This document shows, in pieces, positions 2,515 through 27,830 of a stretch of 53,003 nucleotides of DNA. Under the pieces are notes generated by a model. It did not search any database and was not told where the DNA came from. It saw nothing but the letters and a program-made list of their open reading frames with translations. This stretch comes from Acutalibacteraceae bacterium (GTDB lineage: Bacteria > Bacillota > Clostridia > Oscillospirales > Acutalibacteraceae). Position 1 is the stretch's first letter; every line of letters begins with the position of its first letter. The translations under genes were made by a program, and so were the position numbers. The DNA lies in NCBI GenBank assembly GCA_045597045.1, contig JAZODN010000025.1, positions 1-53,003 on the forward strand, in the 5' to 3' direction.

Positions 2515-3351
2515 ATGAGAACTGTGAAGATCGTTGCCGATTCCGCTGCCAATGTTATTGCATTGGAACGTGTGGATTTTGCGGTCGTACCGCTGAAAAT
2601 TGTGACCGAGACGGCAGAGTTCGTGGATGCGCCGTCGTTGGATGTGGCGGATATGACGGCCTATTTTGACCGTTACAAAGGCACTTCTAAGACGTCTTGT
2701 CCCAATCCGGCAGATTTTTTAGAGGCGTTTGGTGATGCCGAGGATGTGTTTTGTGTGACGATCACAAGCGGTCTTTCGGGCAGCTACAACGCCGCGTGCG
2801 TGGCCAAAACCATGTATGAAGCGGAACACGTCGGCGCGCGTGTGTGGTTGATCGATACGCTTTCGGCCGGTGCGGAAATGCAACTGATCGTAGAACGCTT
2901 GGCACATTTGGTCGAAAGCGGTCGCTCGTATGAAGACATCATCACAGAGATTACCGCTTATCAAAAACGGACGGGGCTGCTCTTTATGTTAGGCTCGCTT
3001 AAAAATTTTGCGGCAAACGGGCGCGTACCGCTGGCGGTTGCCAAGGCGGCCGGTATTTTGGGGCTTCGTGTGGTGGGGAAGGCGAGCGAAAAAGGCACGC
3101 TGGAACCGTTGGATAAGTGCCGCGGCGAACAGCGTGCCGTTGAGCGCATACTGATGCATCTGCAAGAGGAGGGGTTTGCCGGCGGTAAGGTGTGTGTGGC
3201 GCACAATACCAATGCAGCGGCGGCCAGAGCCTTGCGAGCTTGTATATTGGACATATGGCCGACGGCCGAGGTGGCGGTTGTGGCTTGCCGAGGTTTGTGC
3301 AGCTACTACGCCGAAAAAGGCGGCATGCTTGTGGGATTTGAAAAAGCATAA
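2515..3351 (+). CDS. DegV family (fatty-acid-binding) protein
   Basis: 278 aa with the typical DegV N-terminus (MRTVKIVADSAANV...) and TSGLSGSYN motif region. Confidence 0.8.
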   Translation: MRTVKIVADSAANVIALERVDFAVVPLKIVTETAEFVDAPSLDVADMTAYFDRYKGTSKTSCPNPADFLEAFGDAEDVFCVTITSGLSGSYNAACVAKTMYEAEHVGARVWLIDTLSAGAEMQLIVERLAHLVESGRSYEDIITEITAYQKRTGLLFMLGSLKNFAANGRVPLAVAKAAGILGLRVVGKASEKGTLEPLDKCRGEQRAVERILMHLQEEGFAGGKVCVAHNTNAAAARALRACILDIWPTAEVAVVACRGLCSYYAEKGGMLVGFEKA

Positions 3352-3356
3352 AAGAA

Positions 3357-3395
3357 CGGCGAAGAAGAAACATCGGTTCTTCTTCGCCGCTTTTT
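3357..3395. terminator. bidirectional intrinsic terminator between convergent genes
   Basis: GGCGAAGAAGAA-loop-TTCTTCTTCGCC (12-bp stem) flanked by an A-run on one side and a T-run on the other. It sits between degV (+) and the P-II-like gene (-). Confidence 0.85.
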
Positions 3396-3396
3396 G

Positions 3397-4080
3397 TTAC
3401 AGACCCATCACTTCATCGACCGGCAGTGAGACGACCAGTCCTTTTGCTTTGCTGTGCATGCCGTAGGCTTCGCTGACGGCTTTCATGATGGCGAGTTTTT
3501 CTTCGTGATCCGCCAAAATCAGCACGATTTCTTTTTCTTCCTGCACGCTGAGACCCCAAAAACCCGTGGCGTCCCCGTTTTCGATACCGCGGCTGTGAAT
3601 GATCGTGCCGCCGCCGGCACCTGCTGCACGCGCAGTGTTCATCACGTCGCCGCCAAAACCGCGATCCACGGTGGCTGCAATCAACACGTATTTGGTATCG
3701 CCCATGGTTATTTCACCCTTTCTGCTGTCGCCTCTTTCGTAATGTTCGGCTGCGCTATCCATCATGCGCAGCATCAGGTTGCTGGCTCCGGTCAACGGGA
3801 TCGTGAAGGCGATGCCGCTGTTCACCGCATCTAACCGCAAACGCGAATGCAGCGTTTGCAGCATTTGTCGGCCGAGCGCGCGCGGCACGTAACTTATCAG
3901 CACGCTTTTATCCACGCTGCCCAAGCCCAGTGTGTCCATAATTTCGCTGGACGCCGTGCCTTCCGCATTCATTCGAAACTGCAGCGGCAGGTTGCTTTGC
4001 AAAAACATATCGGCGGCTTTTTCTGCCAATTTCGGAGTAGCGATCAAAATCAACATTTGATATACTTTCTGTTCACTCAT
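3397..4080 (-). CDS. tandem P-II-like signal-transduction protein (two P-II-type domains)
   Basis: 227 aa, about twice the P-II length. The second half (KYVLIAATVDRGFGGDVMNTARAAGAGGGTIIHSRG...EKEIVLILA) looks P-II-like. AAGGAGG RBS overlaps the stop of the upstream gene. Confidence 0.6.
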   Translation of the reverse strand: MSEQKVYQMLILIATPKLAEKAADMFLQSNLPLQFRMNAEGTASSEIMDTLGLGSVDKSVLISYVPRALGRQMLQTLHSRLRLDAVNSGIAFTIPLTGASNLMLRMMDSAAEHYERGDSRKGEITMGDTKYVLIAATVDRGFGGDVMNTARAAGAGGGTIIHSRGIENGDATGFWGLSVQEEKEIVLILADHEEKLAIMKAVSEAYGMHSKAKGLVVSLPVDEVMGL

Positions 4081-4092
4081 GCAGCCGCCTCC

Positions 4093-5613
4093 TTATTCCA
4101 AGTCGATAATGTCGTCGCTGTCGGCGGTGAGGCCGGGATGCAGCAACGCTGCTTTTTCGAGTTTTTTCGTTTTGACACGATACACAATGCCCATGATCTG
4201 AATGGCAATCAGGGGGGTGAGTGCAACCAGCGCTACCACGCCGAAGGCATCCGTCATCAGGTTGCCGCCAAGTGCTTGGCAGGTACCGATGCTTAACGGC
4301 AGCAAGAAGGTCGAGGTCATCGGGCCGCTGGCCACACCGCCTGAGTCGAAGGCGATACCCACAAAAATTTTCGGTACAAACAGCGACATTGCAAGGGCAA
4401 TGACGTAGCCGGGTACCAAGATCCAATAAATCGGAATGTTCAAGAGAATACGCAACATGGCAAGACCGATACTGACAGCCACGCCGATGGACATGCTGCG
4501 GTTCATCACTTTCACCGAGATCGCACCGTCGGTTACGTTTTCCACTTGGTGGTTGAGCACCTGAATGGCAGGCTCGGCTTTCACAATGTAATAACCGATC
4601 AGCATGCCGATGGGGATCAAAATCCAGTTGTAGCGGAGAGAAGCCAACTCCGCACCGAGGAAAGCGCCTACGGGTGCAAACCCCACGTTCACGCCGCACA
4701 AAAACAGCACCAGACCGATGAGGGTATAGATCATGCCAACCGTAATGCGCTTAACCTGCCTCTTTTGATAACGGTGGGTGAGTAACTGAAACAGCACAAA
4801 AACCACCGCGATGGGAAGCAAAGAGATCAGCACTTCACCGCCGTATGTCGGCAGTTCATAGGCAAACACACGCACCACGTCACGGGTGGTGAGCACCTTG
4901 GCAATTTCCCCGAGAGAATACGCAGCCTCGGTGGGTTTGAAGAAACAGCCGAGAAGCAGTACCGCCAAAATGGGGCCGACACTGGAAAGAGCCACCAATC
5001 CAAAACTGTCACTGGCGGCATCTTTGCCGCTGCGCACCGATGCTAAACCGATACCCAATGCCATGATAAACGGCACGGTCATCGGGCCGGTGGTCACGCC
5101 GCCGGAATCAAAAGCCACCGCTAAAAAATCGCGCGGAACAAAGAAGGAGAGGATAATCAGCAGTGTGTATAACACGATCAGCAATCGGGACAGATCGATA
5201 TGATAACGGATACGCACAATCGCCACCGCCAAAAACAGACCAACGCCAAAGGCAACCGTTAAGATCAGCGTTAAGTCAGGAACAGAGGGCACTTGATGTG
5301 CCAACACCTGCAGATCGGGTTCCGATACGGTGATAATTGCACCCATGATAAACCCGATCAGCAGCACCGCCAAAACCTTTTTCGTTTTGGAGATCTGCAC
5401 GCCGACACCTTCGCCGATGGGGGTCATGGCCATTTCGGCACCGAGTTGGAAAAAGCCCATGCCGAAGATCAGCAGTACGGCACCTGCCAAAAACATCACC
5501 ATGGTACCCAGAGAAATCGGCACCAGGAAAACGCTGATCAGTAGCACGATACCGGTGATCGGCAGCACCGCCGAAAGCGATTCCAATGTTTTTTCTCGCA
5601 GTTTAGGATTCAA
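4093..5613 (-). CDS. polytopic membrane protein, DUF1538-type, internally duplicated
   Basis: 506 aa, highly hydrophobic. The motif occurs twice: FDSGGVTTGPMTVPFIMALGIG and FDSGGVASGPMTSTFLLPLSIG. TTG start at 5613 with a GGAAAGG RBS. The family name is from memory of the DSGG(V)xxGP(M)T signature. Confidence 0.6.
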   Translation of the reverse strand: MNPKLREKTLESLSAVLPITGIVLLISVFLVPISLGTMVMFLAGAVLLIFGMGFFQLGAEMAMTPIGEGVGVQISKTKKVLAVLLIGFIMGAIITVSEPDLQVLAHQVPSVPDLTLILTVAFGVGLFLAVAIVRIRYHIDLSRLLIVLYTLLIILSFFVPRDFLAVAFDSGGVTTGPMTVPFIMALGIGLASVRSGKDAASDSFGLVALSSVGPILAVLLLGCFFKPTEAAYSLGEIAKVLTTRDVVRVFAYELPTYGGEVLISLLPIAVVFVLFQLLTHRYQKRQVKRITVGMIYTLIGLVLFLCGVNVGFAPVGAFLGAELASLRYNWILIPIGMLIGYYIVKAEPAIQVLNHQVENVTDGAISVKVMNRSMSIGVAVSIGLAMLRILLNIPIYWILVPGYVIALAMSLFVPKIFVGIAFDSGGVASGPMTSTFLLPLSIGTCQALGGNLMTDAFGVVALVALTPLIAIQIMGIVYRVKTKKLEKAALLHPGLTADSDDIIDLE

Positions 5614-5652
5614 ATCGCCACAGCCTTTCCGTAAAATCCGAAGCGTCGTTCT

Positions 5653-6747
5653 TTATTTCACCAATACGGTTTTGATGTTCTTGCCCGCGTTGGCATCGGC
5701 AAATGCTTCGTTCACGTGTGCGATGGGGTAGGGTGTGGCCAATGCGGCGATCGTCGGTTGCAGGTCGGGATTCTCTGCTAAAAACGTTACGTAGTCGTGT
5801 ACGTCGGGGAAAGAATACTGAGAAGAGCCGAGAATTTGCAGTGCTTTAAAGGTGATGAGCTGCGGCTGGATGGCCACAGAACCGGATTCGCTGTATTGAC
5901 CGGGGATGAGATACACACCACGGTTGCGCAGGATGGCAATGCCCTGTGCCACGGCAGCCGGCGCGCCCGAAGCCTCAAAGCACAGATCCACACCGAGTCC
6001 GTTGTTTTCGGCCTGCAAGGCGGCGGTTACGGCGGGTTCGCCTTCTGCTTTTAGACTGAACACACGGTCGGCCCCCAATAGACGGGCAGCTTCGTCGCGC
6101 TTGGTGTTAGCTCCCGTTGTGATAGCATACACCTTTTCAATGCCCAAACGCTTCAAATACATCACCGCGAACAGGCCCACAGGGCCGAGACCCTGCACCA
6201 CCGCCACCTTCATTTGGGAGAGGGCGATGTTGGCACGCTCTGCCAAGCGGAAGGCATGGATGGCGGTAGGGCCGGGGCAGGCAAAGATAGCGGCTACTGT
6301 GGGATCCACCCCCACAGGCACCTTGATAAGGTTGGTGAGGGGAGTGTAGTTCACTTCGGTATATCCGCCGTAAAGATGGGGTGCCACTTCAATGTCGCCG
6401 CCGTTGGTGAGACCCATGTTCACACAGTTGGCATCGTCACCGCTTTGGCAAAGTGCACATTCGCCGCACGGCACGGCAATGTCGGCAATCACTGCATCCC
6501 CTTTGGCTAAGTCGAACTTGGCAGCTTCGACGGCATCTGCAGCCGTGATGCGCCCCACGAATTCATGGCCGATGATGGCGGGGGCGCTTTCTTCCAATTT
6601 GCCGTTGTGAATGTGCAGGTCGGTTCCGCACACGCCGCTGGCAATCAGTTCCAGCTGTGCGTAGCCGGATGGTGGCGGTGTCACGGGAAATTCGCGCACC
6701 TCAAAGGGGTGTTCTGCCCCCATAAAAACAGCCGCTTTGGCTTTCAT
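5653..6747 (-). CDS. zinc-dependent alcohol dehydrogenase (MDR family)
   Basis: Catalytic Zn ligands in SGVCGTDLH and GHEFVG. Structural Zn motif CGECALCQSGDDANC. GxGxxG in VVQGLGPVGL. Confidence 0.85.
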   Translation of the reverse strand: MKAKAAVFMGAEHPFEVREFPVTPPPSGYAQLELIASGVCGTDLHIHNGKLEESAPAIIGHEFVGRITAADAVEAAKFDLAKGDAVIADIAVPCGECALCQSGDDANCVNMGLTNGGDIEVAPHLYGGYTEVNYTPLTNLIKVPVGVDPTVAAIFACPGPTAIHAFRLAERANIALSQMKVAVVQGLGPVGLFAVMYLKRLGIEKVYAITTGANTKRDEAARLLGADRVFSLKAEGEPAVTAALQAENNGLGVDLCFEASGAPAAVAQGIAILRNRGVYLIPGQYSESGSVAIQPQLITFKALQILGSSQYSFPDVHDYVTFLAENPDLQPTIAALATPYPIAHVNEAFADANAGKNIKTVLVK

Positions 6748-6756
6748 AACAAATTC

Positions 6757-7521
6757 CTACCCTTCTATTTTTACTTGCACATACTGTGCATATAGCGCTG
6801 CTAACGCCGCACGCTGATCAGCGGTGGGCGGCATGTGGTTTTTGTAAGCATAGTCCAATCCCATGGCCTCGTATTTTGCATTGCCCAAACGGTGGAAGGG
6901 CAGCAGATCGGCTTCCTTTATATTCAGCGAACGCAACAACTTGCCGATTGCCCGAATTGAATCTTCGTCGGTGTTAAAATCGGGGATCAGCGGAATGCGC
7001 ACGGTAAAAGGCACGCCGTCTCGTGCTAAGGAGGCAAGATTGGCCGTTACAAGATCCAAGTCGCCGCCGATGGCGCGATATTTCGATGCGTCGGCGGTTT
7101 TAAGATCGAATAGATAGCCGTTTACCACGGGATTCAGGGTCTCAAAGGCGGTGTACGGCACACAGCCGGCGGTATCAATCAGCACGGAAATGCCATGCGT
7201 TTTCAATAATCCGGCCAATTGCGCGGCTTCATTGGCTTGCAGCATAACTTCGCCGCCGGAAAAAGTGACGCCGCCGCCGCTTTGGTCAAAAAACGGGCGG
7301 TCTTCCAACAGTTCCGGCAACAGTTCTTCGGAAGAAACGCACACGCCGCGCGTTTCGGTCTTACCGTTGCGATAGTGCAGCGCGGTGGTTTCGGCTGCCA
7401 AGTTTTCGGGATTGTGACACCATGGGCAAAAGAGGTGGCAGCCTTTGAAAAACACGGTTGTGCGGATGCCCGGGCCGTCGCCAACCGAAAAATGTTGAAT
7501 GTTGGATATGTTCAGCAGCAT
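6757..7521 (-). CDS. glycyl-radical enzyme activating protein (radical SAM, PflA-like minimal type)
   Basis: CX3CX2C in FFKGCHLFCPWCHNPE (C28, C32, C35). 254 aa with only five Cys in total and no CxxCxxCxxxC ferredoxin insert. Starts 4 nt after the GRE stop, with an AGGGGTGAG RBS. Confidence 0.85.
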   Translation of the reverse strand: MLLNISNIQHFSVGDGPGIRTTVFFKGCHLFCPWCHNPENLAAETTALHYRNGKTETRGVCVSSEELLPELLEDRPFFDQSGGGVTFSGGEVMLQANEAAQLAGLLKTHGISVLIDTAGCVPYTAFETLNPVVNGYLFDLKTADASKYRAIGGDLDLVTANLASLARDGVPFTVRIPLIPDFNTDEDSIRAIGKLLRSLNIKEADLLPFHRLGNAKYEAMGLDYAYKNHMPPTADQRAALAALYAQYVQVKIEG

Positions 7522-7525
7522 ACAC

Positions 7526-9637
7526 TCACCCCTGTTGGGTGCGGTTGAGAATATCTAACTGTACCGCGCGGTCAAGTGTTACATAAAAGGCCGAAAAGCC
7601 CGAAACACGCACCACCAAACTACCGTATTTTTCGGGATGCTCCATTGCATCCAACAGCGTTTCGCGTGAGGTGGCGTTGATCTGAATCTGCTGTCCACCC
7701 ATTTTAAAATAGGTACGAATGAGTGCTTGCAGTTTTGGGCGGTTTTCAGGGGTGAACATGGCCGGAGAGTATTTTTGATTGACCACACTTCCGCAGGCGA
7801 CTTGCGTGTAATCGGGTTTCGATACGCTGAGCAGTGTAGCGGTTGCACCGCGCACGTCGCGACCGTAGGAGGGGGAGGCGGCGTCTGACAGTGGTTCACC
7901 GCGTTTTCGTCCATCCGGTGTAGCGTTGATAATGCGTCCGGCAGAAATGTTGCTGACGTTGGCCGCAACGTCGATGTAAATGCCGCCGCCGTCACGGGTT
8001 TTATACTGTTTAAAGCAGGAGGCCATGTATTTTACGAACCAAACGGCGTATTTATCTGCAAAATCGTCGTTGTTGCCGTATTTGGGGGCAGCCAACAGTT
8101 TTTCCCGCAGCGCTTCGTATCCTTCGAAATTACTGTTCAGTGCAGCCTTCAATTCGCTGAGCGTGGCGGCTTTATCAATAAAAATTACCTTCTCGATAGC
8201 GGCAAGCGAATCGGTGATGGTACCGATTCCCATGATCGCCACACCGTGCACCGAAGGATATATGCTGCCGCCGTTGTTGATATCTAAGCCACGTCCGATG
8301 CAATCGTAGCAGAAGCAAGAAAGAAACGGCTCGGGGAAATTCTCTTGGCAGATCGCGTTGTTGCGGTTTTTAAACCATGCGTAATACTCTGCCGCACCAT
8401 GCGCCAGCTGTGCTTCAAAACGGGACATGAAATCGCCCATGGTGTGAATACTGTCTACGTCGCCGGTATCTATGCCGATTGAACGGTTGGTTTCGCTGCG
8501 CCCGTTATTAAAGAGATAGTCGAAATAGCGCGGTGTGTCCAGTCGCCCGTCGGACCACGGCGGTTGCATACCTGTAATAAAGTTTTCAATGCAACCGACC
8601 ATGCAGAAGTTGTAAATATCCTCTTCGCGGTAACCGTATTCCCGCAGCGCCGGAATCATCACCGCATCGTTCATTAAAGCCGGATAGCCGAGCCCCGTGC
8701 CGATCACCTGCAGGCATAAGTCCAGGAAATCGTCAGGCGTGTTTTCGGCGGTGCGCAGTGACAGGTTTGGACCCGGTATGTTGCAGTTTCCCACCGCACG
8801 AACGATACAGTAGGAGAGAGGGTTTACCGCGCAGGAACCATCGGGATTGGTACCGCCGATACAGATGTTCACAACATCGTCGCGCAGGCGAATAAACACG
8901 TTTTCAAGCAACTCGATCACGCGCTCATCGGTGATGCGGCCACTTTCGATATCCGCTTTATAGAACGGGTATAAGTACTGATCCAGGCGACCGAGCGCCA
9001 TGGCATAGCGCCCTTCCATCAAGAAAGCGGTGTGGCAAAACCAAACAAGCTGAAGGGCTTCGGCAAAGGTCTTGGGTGCACCGCGCAACAGTGCCTCACA
9101 GTTTTGAAGAATAAAGTCTACCCGTTGGCGGTCATAGCCATTTTTTTCACGGCATGCTTTGGCTGCCTCAACATAGTTTTCAATCATGCGGTAAAACCCC
9201 TCCAAGGCGCGTTTCATACCTTGCAGCGTTTCGCACCTTTTGGGGTCGTTTTGCCACGTAATGAGCGAACGGTCGATTTCCAACAGCAGGCCGGGCAGGC
9301 CTACCGTGAGAATATGGTCATAATTCGGAGCGTAGTGGTCTTTGTTGGTAATGAATTCACGTTCGCCGAATTGTGCAACCGTCGCCTGGGCATATGCCAG
9401 CGTCATTTCGTCGGCCGTGGTATACAGCGCGCAGCGGTTGCCCGTGATCAACTCGGCAGGGAGAATTTGCGGTTGTGTTTCGGTAAATAGTGCATAAATG
9501 CCGTTGGCACGTAAAGGGACGGGGGCAGCGGCTAAATCTTTTTTATATCCCAGGAAACGGAAATAGTAGGGAGCGTAAGTCCCGTGGCGGTCGGTAAAAT
9601 AGTCGGTGCTCATTTGGTCAAACAGCTTCATATCCAT
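7526..9637 (-). CDS. glycyl radical enzyme, PFL2/dehydratase-lyase-like, short form (703 aa), substrate unknown
   Basis: Glycyl-radical fingerprint VVRVSGFSAFY (Gly680, codon 7598-7600). Thiyl loop MVGCIENF (Cys349 codon 8591-8593, Glu351) instead of the Cys-Cys of pyruvate formate-lyase. Confidence 0.85.
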   Translation of the reverse strand: MDMKLFDQMSTDYFTDRHGTYAPYYFRFLGYKKDLAAAPVPLRANGIYALFTETQPQILPAELITGNRCALYTTADEMTLAYAQATVAQFGEREFITNKDHYAPNYDHILTVGLPGLLLEIDRSLITWQNDPKRCETLQGMKRALEGFYRMIENYVEAAKACREKNGYDRQRVDFILQNCEALLRGAPKTFAEALQLVWFCHTAFLMEGRYAMALGRLDQYLYPFYKADIESGRITDERVIELLENVFIRLRDDVVNICIGGTNPDGSCAVNPLSYCIVRAVGNCNIPGPNLSLRTAENTPDDFLDLCLQVIGTGLGYPALMNDAVMIPALREYGYREEDIYNFCMVGCIENFITGMQPPWSDGRLDTPRYFDYLFNNGRSETNRSIGIDTGDVDSIHTMGDFMSRFEAQLAHGAAEYYAWFKNRNNAICQENFPEPFLSCFCYDCIGRGLDINNGGSIYPSVHGVAIMGIGTITDSLAAIEKVIFIDKAATLSELKAALNSNFEGYEALREKLLAAPKYGNNDDFADKYAVWFVKYMASCFKQYKTRDGGGIYIDVAANVSNISAGRIINATPDGRKRGEPLSDAASPSYGRDVRGATATLLSVSKPDYTQVACGSVVNQKYSPAMFTPENRPKLQALIRTYFKMGGQQIQINATSRETLLDAMEHPEKYGSLVVRVSGFSAFYVTLDRAVQLDILNRTQQG

Positions 9638-9648
9638 TTTCTCCTTGC

Positions 9649-10266
9649 TTAGGATTCTTCGTTTTTATACCGCAGTTTCGACCAAAGCAGAACAATAATC
9701 TGACCGGGTACGCCCAGCGCAAATACCGTCCATACCGTAAAGCCGGAAAAGAGCAACGTGATAAACAGCGACCCCAACACCGACCACATCAAAAGTGAGA
9801 TGATCAGAAAGTTGCGACGCAGGTTGAACCAAAGAGAATTAAAGATGAGCCAGACCACCAGGGTGGCGGGAATCGCATACAAGAACGGCAGCAGCGGCCC
9901 CCAGGAGGTTTTGGCAAGCAGATCCAAAATGATGTATAGTAAAATGGCGAGCAGCCACACCAATACCACACACATCCCCGTGATAAAACCGCGGTTTTGA
10001 CGGCGGCGACGGCTGGTGCGTTTGGCACGAAGGAACACGCTGTCGTTTTCGGGCCGTACCAAATAGTCGAGCGATACTTCAAACAAATCGGCGATGGCGA
10101 TCAGCACGGCAATATCGGGCAGCGATTCGCCGCGTTCCCATTTAGAGATCGCTTTGTCGGAATAATTCAATTTTTCCGCCAATTCCAACTGCGTCATTTC
10201 GCGTGCTTGTCGCAATGAAGCGATGTTTTTGGCGACGATGGCTTTAATATCTTGCAAAAGAAGCAC
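9649..10266 (-). CDS. XRE-family HTH transcriptional regulator with C-terminal multi-pass membrane domain
   Basis: HTH region MTQLELAEKLNYSDKAISKWERGESLPDIAVLIAIADLF, followed by about 4 hydrophobic helices. The listed GTG 10266 abuts the RBS; TTG 10257 (9 nt after GGAAGGAG) is the more likely start. The stop lies 11 nt before the GRE start. Confidence 0.75.
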   Translation of the reverse strand: MLLLQDIKAIVAKNIASLRQAREMTQLELAEKLNYSDKAISKWERGESLPDIAVLIAIADLFEVSLDYLVRPENDSVFLRAKRTSRRRRQNRGFITGMCVVLVWLLAILLYIILDLLAKTSWGPLLPFLYAIPATLVVWLIFNSLWFNLRRNFLIISLLMWSVLGSLFITLLFSGFTVWTVFALGVPGQIIVLLWSKLRYKNEES

Positions 10267-10280
10267 ACTCCTTCCAATAA

Positions 10281-10364
10281 TCTACACCCATAATACCACA
10301 TCTGCGCAAAAAAATCAACAAATATAATGTAAATAATAGTGTTCTGATTTCAATTCTACACCCA
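10281..10364. repeat. two copies of a 10-bp direct repeat TCTACACCCA (10281-10290 and 10355-10364); candidate operator
   Basis: Exact 10-mer seen twice, 74 bp apart, in the divergent XRE/degV intergenic region. Copy 1 abuts the -10 and start site of the XRE promoter; copy 2 lies upstream of its -35. Confidence 0.45.
10290..10318 (-). promoter_or_regulatory. sigma-A-type promoter for the XRE-GRE operon
   Basis: On the minus strand: TTGATT (10318-10313), 17-nt spacer, TGgTATTAT extended -10 (10295-10290). Confidence 0.5.
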
Positions 10365-10512: not shown

Positions 10513-11376
10513 ATGCGTCCTTACATTATTTATACCGATTCGGCTTGTGATATGCTGCCCGAAACGTTGGAGTCGTGGGGGGTTAAACGGTGTGATCTGT
10601 CCTTTCAGTTCGACGGTGACGATACGGTATACACGAACTTTGAATTAACGCCGGCTGCCTTTTATCAGCGTATGCGCGATGGCGGCGTGGCCAAAACCTC
10701 GGCGGTCAACAGCGAAACCTTCCGCACGCTGTTTGAGGAGGAACTGAAAAACGGAAACGACGTGCTGTATATCGGTTTTTCTTCGGGGCTCAGCACCACC
10801 TTTAACTGTGCACGCATGGCGGCGGCGGAACTGGAGGAAGAGTATGCGGAGCAGCGCGTGCGTGCAGTGGATACGCGCTCGGCATCGGCCGGCTTTGGCA
10901 TGCTTCTCTATCTGGCGGTACAAAAGAAGGCAGAGGGTGCTTCTCTGGATGAGGTGGCAGATTACGTGGAAGCACAGCGTGCACATCAATGCCATTGGTT
11001 TACGGTGGACGATCTGGTGTATCTTAAACGCGGTGGACGGGTAAGTCCTGCGGTGGCGTTGATCGGTGGCGTACTCGGTATTAAGCCGGTGTTGAATATG
11101 GATGACGAAGGTCACTTGATCAGCCGTTCGAAGGTGCGCGGACGCAAAGCGGCCCTCAAGGCGTTGGCCGATAAATACGGCGAGTTAGCTATCAACCGTG
11201 AAGGCCCGGTATTTATTTCCCACGGCGACTGTGCCGAAGATGCCGCGCTGTTGGCAGATATGTTGAAGGAAACCTATGGGGTAGCGGTCGATATGACGGT
11301 CAATGTCGGACCTGTTATCGGTGCTCATTCCGGTCCGGGCACCATGGCTCTTTTCTTTATCGGAAAGGAGCGCTAA
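10513..11376 (+). CDS. DegV family (fatty-acid-binding) protein, second paralog
   Basis: 287 aa: MRPYIIYTDSACDM..., FSSGLSTTF, GPVIGAHSGPG. Only distantly similar to the 2515-3351 copy. Confidence 0.8.
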   Translation: MRPYIIYTDSACDMLPETLESWGVKRCDLSFQFDGDDTVYTNFELTPAAFYQRMRDGGVAKTSAVNSETFRTLFEEELKNGNDVLYIGFSSGLSTTFNCARMAAAELEEEYAEQRVRAVDTRSASAGFGMLLYLAVQKKAEGASLDEVADYVEAQRAHQCHWFTVDDLVYLKRGGRVSPAVALIGGVLGIKPVLNMDDEGHLISRSKVRGRKAALKALADKYGELAINREGPVFISHGDCAEDAALLADMLKETYGVAVDMTVNVGPVIGAHSGPGTMALFFIGKER

Positions 11377-27743: not shown

Positions 27744-27830
27744 GCGGATATGGCGGAATTGGCAGACGCGTTAGATTCAGGTTCTAATCGGGGCAACTCG
27801 GTGGAGGTTCAAGTCCTCTTATCCGCACCA
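27744..27830 (+). tRNA. tRNA-Leu (anticodon CAG), class II with long variable arm, CCA encoded
   Basis: Acceptor stem GCGGATA/TATCCGC. Anticodon stem TTAGA/TCTAA with loop TTCAGGT. Variable arm CGGGGCAACTCGG. T-arm GGAGG-TTCAAGT-CCTCT. Ends in ACCA. Confidence 0.9.

Follow-up and report, generated by a model that had tools for sequence, protein, structure and literature searches.

The B12-independent glycerol dehydratase (GD) system of Clostridium butyricum (DhaB1, DhaB2 and DhaT; 1R8W/1R9D) is encoded by a dha operon in the order dehydratase, activase and alcohol dehydrogenase (ADH), with no microcompartment, an arrangement also seen in the locus described here. According to a June 2026 review, the characterised glycyl radical enzyme (GRE) eliminases and isomerases comprise GD, PD, HpfG, HypD, HpyG, HpzG, CutC, IslA/IseG, HpsG, HplG, YbiW and PflD. 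All GRE eliminases and isomerases keep a CXE motif whose Glu is hydrogen-bonded to a substrate hydroxyl, and in GD Glu435 deprotonates the C1-OH and His164 protonates the leaving C2-OH. The same review reports that an eight-Cys ferredoxin-like domain is present in the vast majority of GRE activases and missing only from PFL-AE and RNR-AE, and that whole GRE clades are still without a function. Here we analyse a six-gene cluster in a 53,003-nt stretch of DNA from an Acutalibacteraceae bacterium (GCA_045597045.1, contig JAZODN010000025.1, positions 1–53,003, forward strand), hereafter the window. The cluster encodes, in order, an XRE-type membrane regulator, a short GRE, a radical SAM activase, a zinc-dependent ADH, a DUF1538 membrane protein and a 227-aa protein with remote P-II similarity (Table 1). 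GRE, activase and ADH form its conserved core, and we consider it probable that the cluster is a composite operon built on that core, in which the GRE would be a dehydratase and the ADH would reduce its carbonyl product.

Comparison with 83 related GRE loci separates the core from its companions (denominators are the loci with room for the gene in question). The activase is the next gene after the GRE in 69 of 77 loci, and in 54 of 68 a 364-aa ADH comes immediately behind the activase, bearing out the original prediction that the GRE and its activase are coupled to an ADH; at 60–90% identity this ADH tracks the GRE. The conserved functional unit is thus GRE, activase and Zn-ADH. The six-gene neighbourhood as a whole, whose conservation in other genomes the original prediction had left to be checked, is not a general arrangement. 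Only 3 of 69 loci have an XRE membrane regulator ahead of the GRE, namely the nearest relatives of the window (L006, L007 and L008; 85–86% GRE identity), and a divergent AraC regulator occupies the upstream position in 49 of 69. A DUF1538 gene follows the ADH in 2 of 49 loci, L006 and L008, where the gene for the 227-aa protein is present too. The third close relative, L007, has the XRE, GRE, activase and ADH genes flanked by the window's pair of DegV paralogues and lacks the DUF1538/P-II-like cassette; 15 nt beyond its ADH stop codon lies a hairpin terminator of its own, and then the DegV gene. On the evidence of this junction, the cassette is an indel between ADH and terminator, and the L007 comparison is decisive in setting the cassette apart from the conserved unit.

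Other genes accompany the core less regularly. A cytoplasmic SASA-family esterase of about 262 aa was detected by tblastn in 19 of 68 loci, after the ADH in 13 and in place of it in 6, and a short-chain dehydrogenase (SDR) occupies the oxidoreductase slot of some loci without the ADH, for example L024. SASA is also the commonest accessory family (16 open reading frames (ORFs)) in a Pfam census of neighbouring ORFs, which covers the first two batches, 256 ORFs in all, and the top 25 families per scan. We looked for a conserved transporter or further pathway gene near the GRE by ORF clustering and by this census. Apart from AraC and SASA, these recovered only MatE, ABC, alpha/beta-hydrolase and GNAT genes, all of them sporadic; the census families include no conserved gene for a transporter, a shell protein, an aldehyde dehydrogenase or a phosphotransacylase.

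The GRE itself falls outside the described families. It matches the PFL-like (PF02901, E = 5e-122) and Gly_radical (E = 4e-27) domains and reaches no curated family cut-off in NCBIfam, scoring 393.5 bits for TIGR01774 (PFL2-3 subfamily; cut-off 678.2), 361 for HypD (1100), 340.6 for TIGR04394 (CutC; 1050), 328 for HpsG (1000), 309 for HpfG (1000) and 113 for PFL (994). Among solved structures it is most similar to CutC, to 9rco (an unnamed ‘glycyl radical protein’) and to GD, all with E values near 1e-96 and about 30% identity. Alignments to solved GREs begin only at about residue 95 of the query, against residue 159 or so of GD, so that about 60 N-terminal residues are missing; an internal deletion brings the protein to 701 aa compared with the 787 aa of GD, and the label ‘short GRE’ given earlier is apt. 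More than 120 cluster representatives at 65–85% identity are almost all 700–702 aa long and bear only the labels ‘DUF3029 family protein’, ‘formate C-acetyltransferase’ or hypothetical protein. A GRE of about 700 aa with a Zn-ADH partner is absent from the characterised set of the June 2026 review, on which the novelty mainly rests; literature searches yielded nothing relevant, although very recent reports may have been missed. The failure of the original prediction to match this GRE to a characterised pathway is borne out on all these counts, and the best reading of the sequence is that the enzyme belongs to an uncharacterised, minimal clade of the GRE 1,2-eliminase type.

Residues required for radical chemistry and elimination are retained almost without exception across the family. 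We counted conservation in 72 family sequences and mapped active-site positions by pairwise alignment to GD (1R8W). The glycyl motif RVxG[FWY] is present as RVSGF at 677–681, with R677 and G680 in 72/72 sequences (F681 completing the motif here). C349 aligns with GD C433 and E351, in the CXE motif C349-I-E351, with GD E435, and both are invariant (72/72), as is H101, the counterpart of GD H164; D363 corresponds to GD D447 and is kept in 70 of the 72. The window GRE therefore shares the CXE loop and the complete His164/Cys433/Glu435/Asp447 set with GD. The surrounding pocket is remodelled: GD H281 and S282 become Y211 and A212, GD Y640 becomes A558, and GD segment 333–339, which carries Y339, falls in a deletion that removes an active-site loop. 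In GD, Ser282, Tyr339 and Tyr640 are substrate-binding residues. Two arginines, R210 and R365, adjoin active-site positions, are invariant in the family and are absent from GD, CutC and 9rco.

The partner enzymes depart from the GD system as well. The activase scores 228 bits for TIGR02494, above the cut-off of 174, with profile positions ~40–98 unmatched; the 254-aa protein has five cysteines in all (C28, C32, C35, C61 and C119) and a single CX3CX2C cluster, and it lacks the ferredoxin-like insert with eight extra Cys. The ADH matches ADH_N and ADH_zinc_N, both above the Pfam cut-offs, and its translation contains the catalytic residues C40/H61/E62 and a structural Cys4 zinc site (C94/C97/C100/C108); its best solved relative is 1vj0. 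Where the Clostridium butyricum system pairs GD with an iron-dependent ADH, the partner here is thus a zinc-dependent medium-chain dehydrogenase/reductase.

In the pathway that we favour, the activase, a PflA-like radical SAM enzyme without an auxiliary ferredoxin domain, would install the radical on G680. A thiyl radical at C349 would then abstract hydrogen from the carbinol carbon of a hydroxylated substrate, E351 would deprotonate the substrate hydroxyl, and H101 and D363 would assist the departure of a vicinal group, most probably water. Reduction of the resulting aldehyde or ketone by the ADH would provide a redox sink, following the logic by which glycerol is converted through 3-hydroxypropionaldehyde to 1,3-propanediol. 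Because the pocket appears enlarged and two extra arginines adjoin active-site positions, the substrate is expected to be something other than glycerol or propanediol; an enlarged, partly hydrophobic pocket with R210 and R365 would suit a larger, possibly anionic diol or polyol. The frequency of a cytoplasmic acetyl-esterase suggests that this substrate may arise by deacetylation, being freed in many relatives by the linked SASA-type enzyme, and since no transporter is conserved, uptake may occur by diffusion or through genes encoded elsewhere. The divergent AraC regulator usual in the family would be replaced here by the co-directional, membrane-anchored XRE protein, and the two-gene cassette placed between ADH and terminator would be co-transcribed and stand outside the pathway. 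More tentatively, the ~700-aa clade as a whole may carry out elimination on a substrate class new for GREs, for example a larger anionic or sugar-derived vicinal diol freed by the SASA esterase, and the DUF1538 and P-II-like proteins may, independently of it, form a new pair of transporter and P-II-type regulator; we regard this wider proposal as possible rather than probable.

Several points weigh against our reading of the locus. GD S282 and Y640 are not kept and an active-site loop is missing, and for this reason diol-dehydratase chemistry is not guaranteed by the shared catalytic set. An AlphaFold2 model of the GRE built on a 17-sequence family alignment was set aside (mean pLDDT 55.6, and values under 50 for the Cys and Gly loops), and a model of this quality cannot confirm R210 and R365 as pocket lining. 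Gene content, synteny counts, the conserved motifs and the indel are observed directly; reaction type, substrate, direction of the ADH and role of the cassette are points that we infer from them. The cassette has neither a promoter nor a terminator of its own in this genome and follows the ADH in L006 and L008 too, and its association with a second short GRE, in locus L086 (see below), leaves some small chance that the two are functionally linked.

One alternative, which we consider unlikely, reverses the order of the reactions: the ADH would act before the GRE, turning a carbonyl compound into the hydroxylated substrate of a C–N, C–S or C–P lyase, much as sulfoacetaldehyde reductase acts upstream of isethionate sulfite-lyase. 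The CXE motif is common to C–N and C–S lyases, and R210 and R365 could provide an anchor for an anionic leaving group, the part played by two Arg in IslA, IseG and HpsG. The best PDB match of the GRE is CutC (9f3w, E = 1e-97), which shares its PFL2-type fold, CXE loop and glycyl motif at a comparable level of similarity, and in NCBIfam the ADH matches best to TIGR03366, a ‘phosphonate catabolism associated’ clade. That match, however, reaches 147 bits against a cut-off of 328, and the catalytic pair points the other way: H101 and D363 match the dehydratase pair His164/Asp447 of GD, whereas the CutC chain has Asp and Ser at the aligned positions, which we equate with the published Asp216 and Thr502 of CutC. 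Nor could the IslA-type Arg/Gln/Arg triad be mapped in the GRE, and the neighbour census contains no aminotransferase, sulfite reductase or phosphite-handling genes. As a further difference from CutC, neither an aldehyde dehydrogenase nor a phosphotransacylase is among the families listed for the window ORFs (top 25 families per scan). Their absence had been noted in the original prediction together with that of shell genes, a part of the claim that stands less firmly: none turned up among the listed families, in scans that did not specifically exclude them and could miss a small shell gene.

The original prediction joined all six genes in one pathway, with the DUF1538 protein importing a small polar substrate under the gating of the P-II-like protein, the GRE eliminating from or dehydrating it, and the ADH reducing the product. 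The genes are co-directional, with gaps of at most 39 nt and a single terminator, and L006 and L008 preserve this arrangement; the GRE family has no other transporter conserved in its vicinity, and the DUF1538/P-II-like pair also lies beside another short GRE in L086–L088. We nevertheless regard this pathway as improbable. In addition to the scarcity of DUF1538 genes in related loci and the cassette-free operon of L007 with the same flanks and its own terminator, the pair keeps together whatever its context: a DUF1538 gene is immediately upstream of the gene for the 227-aa-type protein in 34 of 35 loci, with an estimated spacing of at most 56 nt, and 22 of the 25 such loci that extend over at least 9 kb have no GRE within reach. 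Elsewhere the neighbours of the pair include molybdopterin oxidoreductase, thioredoxin reductase and shikimate genes, among others. The DUF1538 protein is 65–83% identical across hosts, which fits a housekeeping role, and characterised DUF1538 proteins are cation/proton antiporters. Gated import as a step of the GRE pathway is accordingly a part of the original prediction that lacks support. L086–L088 provide the only other distinct context with a GRE near the pair, which is there convergent with a different 699-aa GRE (in L086, at 7662–9761) that is 30% identical to the window GRE, has a CVE Cys loop and represents a second short clade; its activase has 299 aa and contains the ferredoxin domain (region L086:6737–9761, also in L087 and L088), and an AraC gene precedes the L086 pair.

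It is similarly improbable that the GRE is simply a microcompartment-free diol dehydratase of known type, acting on 1,2-propanediol or glycerol with the ADH producing propanol or 1,3-propanediol. This would account for the GD-like His, Asp, Glu and Cys catalytic set and for a gene order resembling dhaB1-dhaB2-dhaT, and small neutral diols need no dedicated transporter. A PocR sensor domain is found in two neighbouring regulators, and a gene for a GH78 alpha-L-rhamnosidase, present elsewhere in the window, also lies beside two related GRE loci; both would fit such a substrate. The TIGR01774 score, however, is far below its cut-off, other residues stand in place of GD S282 and Y640, the loop bearing Y339 has been lost, and invariant arginines would not be expected where the substrate is a neutral C3 diol. 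The activase, too, counts against it, having no ferredoxin domain of the sort typical outside PFL and RNR systems. Very unlikely, finally, is an isomerase of the YbiW, PflD or HplG type that opens a ring by C–O or C–N cleavage to give a ketone for the ADH to reduce: isomerases keep CXE too, YbiW is among the better PDB matches (E = 3e-87), the enlarged pocket and the arginines would be in keeping with a phosphorylated or sugar-like substrate (YbiW and PflD, 1,5-anhydrohexitol-6-phosphate C–O lyases, act on larger anionic sugar-type substrates) and sugar-related esterases are linked to the module, but similarity to YbiW and PflD, at about 30% identity, is no higher than to GD or CutC, the window locus has no aldolase or sugar-phosphate genes nearby, and no aldolase, kinase or PTS genes are conserved near its relatives, unlike in anhydroglycolysis loci.

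The DUF1538 and P-II-like genes are an autonomous pair that would encode an undescribed transporter and its P-II-type regulator. A conserved pair made up of a transporter gene and a following P-II-fold gene is familiar from AmtB-GlnK and SbtA-SbtB; the partner here differs in being a putative two-domain protein of 227 aa. In Clostridia loci (L086–L143) the DUF1538 protein measures about 506–520 aa and the P-II-like protein 221–231 aa. The window DUF1538 protein contains PF07556 (E = 2e-140) in two stretches, and thus two DUF1538 units, and at least 10 hydrophobic segments. Its scores of 172 bits for UmpA (equivalog cut-off 490) and 150 bits for UmpB (500) fall well short. UmpA and UmpB of Halomonas zhaodongensis, the only DUF1538 proteins characterised so far, are needed together and constitute a Na+(Li+,K+)/H+ antiporter; the two homologous units that are heterodimeric there are fused in the 506-aa protein here, and the UmpAB paper mentions no P-II-like partner. 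By analogy, the DUF1538 protein is probably a cation/proton antiporter.

The 227-aa protein has 1,277 homologues and no Pfam match at default thresholds, and its description as a tandem P-II is the least secure element of the original prediction's account of the genes. Its C-half (145–225) resembles PF00543 with E = 0.023 and 15.5 bits, below the gathering cut-off of 25, and matches to PF00543 at E ≤ 1 occur in 21 of 26 family members, the best at 3e-6. In an AlphaFold model (pLDDT 60), the protein folds into two b-a-b-loop-b-a-b units, and Foldseek returns single-domain matches of this moderate-confidence model to P-II, GlnK and PstA with TM scores of 0.54–0.66. A family profile found no PDB match, and phmmer against the PDB gave noise only. 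We also sought sequence proof of a tandem duplication, but hhalign of the N-half against the C-half gave a probability of 0.5% and no detectable repeat. Because these sequence-level tests failed, the tandem P-II assignment depends on the modelled fold and on the weak Pfam similarity of the C-half.

Table 1. Features of the six-gene cluster and its transcription signals, in window coordinates.
Feature	Position	Strand	Details
Sigma-A-like promoter candidate	10290..10318	-	TTGATT-17-TATTAT, extended -10 TG, 9/12 match; upstream of XRE gene
XRE-type helix-turn-helix (HTH) regulator with C-terminal membrane region, first operon gene	9649..10266	-	205 aa as listed; HTH_3
Short GRE with CXE eliminase-type active site	7526..9637	-	703 aa as listed; PFL-like + Gly_radical
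GRE-activating radical SAM enzyme, minimal form	6757..7521	-	254 aa; TIGR02494
Zn-dependent medium-chain alcohol dehydrogenase/reductase (ADH)	5653..6747	-	364 aa; ADH_N + ADH_zinc_N
Fused double-DUF1538 polytopic membrane protein, UmpB-like + UmpA-like halves	4093..5613	-	506 aa; DUF1538
Soluble protein with two predicted ferredoxin-like (b-a-b-b-a-b) halves, C-half remotely P-II-like	3397..4080	-	227 aa; fold + weak PF00543
Bidirectional intrinsic terminator, common to convergent DegV gene	3351..3395	both	arms 19 nt, loop 7 nt, T-run on either strand

ORF calling in the window returned the six minus-strand genes with gaps of 11, 4, 9, 39 and 12 nt exactly as originally described. The strong terminator after the last gene was likewise recovered (arms 3351–3369 and 3377–3395, an A-run on one side and a T-run on the other) and is the only such site that stands out from a shuffled-sequence background; within the cluster we found only 5–7-bp stems in coding sequence, at chance frequency (16 sites against 12.2 ± 3.4), in agreement with the earlier statement that internal terminators are lacking. 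The proposed promoter (10318–10290) has a good consensus match and is plausibly real, but it is a candidate only, because promoter-like sites are not enriched in the region (10 against 7.3 ± 2.8 in shuffles). The 39-nt gap between the ADH and DUF1538 genes contains neither a terminator-like nor a promoter-like site, and for this reason all six genes are likely to be co-transcribed in this genome; given L007 and the independent distribution of the cassette, a shared transcript is not evidence for a shared pathway.

Two start codons deserve comment. The GTG listed for the XRE gene, at 10266, directly abuts the ribosome-binding site, and the true start is probably the in-frame TTG at 10257, 10 nt after the ribosome-binding site GGAAGGAG, giving 202 aa. 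For the GRE, gene calls in relatives begin at the second ATG, which corresponds to 701 aa. In the XRE protein, HTH_3 covers residues 15–69 (E = 6e-16), and three to four hydrophobic segments, among them 99–117, 124–142 and 154–172, are spread over the C-terminal two thirds.

The six genes have a G+C content of 0.50–0.57, and of 0.60–0.65 at third codon positions, the same as their flanks; a recent foreign origin of the DUF1538/P-II-like cassette, which we considered, finds no signal in either measure. On either side of the cluster, at 2515–3351 and 10513–11376, lie two DegV-family paralogues that share about 30% identity, and the rest of the window is ordinary chromosome, with ffh, trmD, aconitase, glycogen phosphorylase, GH77, GH78, an ABC sugar transporter and sigma factors. 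A scan of the whole window at Rfam gathering thresholds detected no riboswitch or leader RNA, its sole match being a tRNA at 27744–27827.

Related loci vary around the core module. In an 85%-identical relative (L009:1–3162) the ADH gene starts about 133 nt after the GRE gene with no activase gene between them, and in L032, L038 and L075 the ADH directly follows the GRE, again with no activase gene detected between. Two tandem GRE copies, both about 62% identical to the window GRE, lie upstream of a single activase in L049:7828–12112. GRE and activase genes, without an ADH, are directly downstream of and co-directional with nrdD-nrdG, the class III ribonucleotide reductase and its activase, in L044:7048–12802. 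In L004:14898–22103 the GRE module adjoins genes for a 1,023-aa RdRP (PF05183) protein, a relaxase, a NikA-like protein, TnpV and a ParE/Phd pair, which suggests that a mobile element can carry the module or lie next to it. In L017, L018 and L019 an Eis-like GNAT acetyltransferase containing an SCP2 domain is encoded after the ADH, a member of the same cluster is encoded upstream of the GRE in L078, and a BNR_2 (sialidase-like) protein is encoded further downstream in L018 (17350–18405). Together with the SASA esterases, the GNAT and BNR_2 genes provide a thin hint of acetylated sugar metabolism. We considered a sialic-acid side chain as the substrate on the strength of SASA and the one BNR_2 neighbour; no nan genes were seen in these neighbourhoods, and the idea is a low-probability lead.

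A scan of one genome per species yielded 386 GRE-related stretches, the top 80 of which belong without exception to uncultured Clostridia (Oscillospiraceae, Acutalibacteraceae, Christensenellaceae, Lachnospiraceae and others). The record titles of the best stretches indicate gut, rumen and faecal sources, including ruminants, horse, rabbit, chicken and at least one series of metagenome-assembled genomes from the human gut. GREs with host consequences in the gut include those behind trimethylamine, p-cresol, H2S precursors and hydroxyproline breakdown products. With 386 stretches in species-representative genomes, the named sources being almost all of gut, rumen or faecal origin, the clade is a well-defined target. 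Attention shifts to GRE, activase and ADH, with the SASA esterase as a clue to the substrate, and away from the DUF1538/P-II-like cassette. The compact three-gene module should suffice for heterologous reconstitution, and its small activase without a ferredoxin domain may avoid the solubility and cluster-reconstitution bottleneck named by the review. An unannotated GRE clade is unsurprising in itself, many being known to the review; what sets this one apart is the combination of minimal GRE and activase architecture, GD-like catalytic residues within a remodelled pocket, a very consistent ADH partner, the esterase clue and breadth in gut Clostridia. If the wider proposal of a new substrate class holds, the clade would represent a stripped-down form of radical catalysis, with an N-terminally shortened barrel, one active-site loop deleted and an activase without auxiliary clusters, and its function would be new among GREs and widely distributed in the uncultured Oscillospirales that inhabit animal and human guts.

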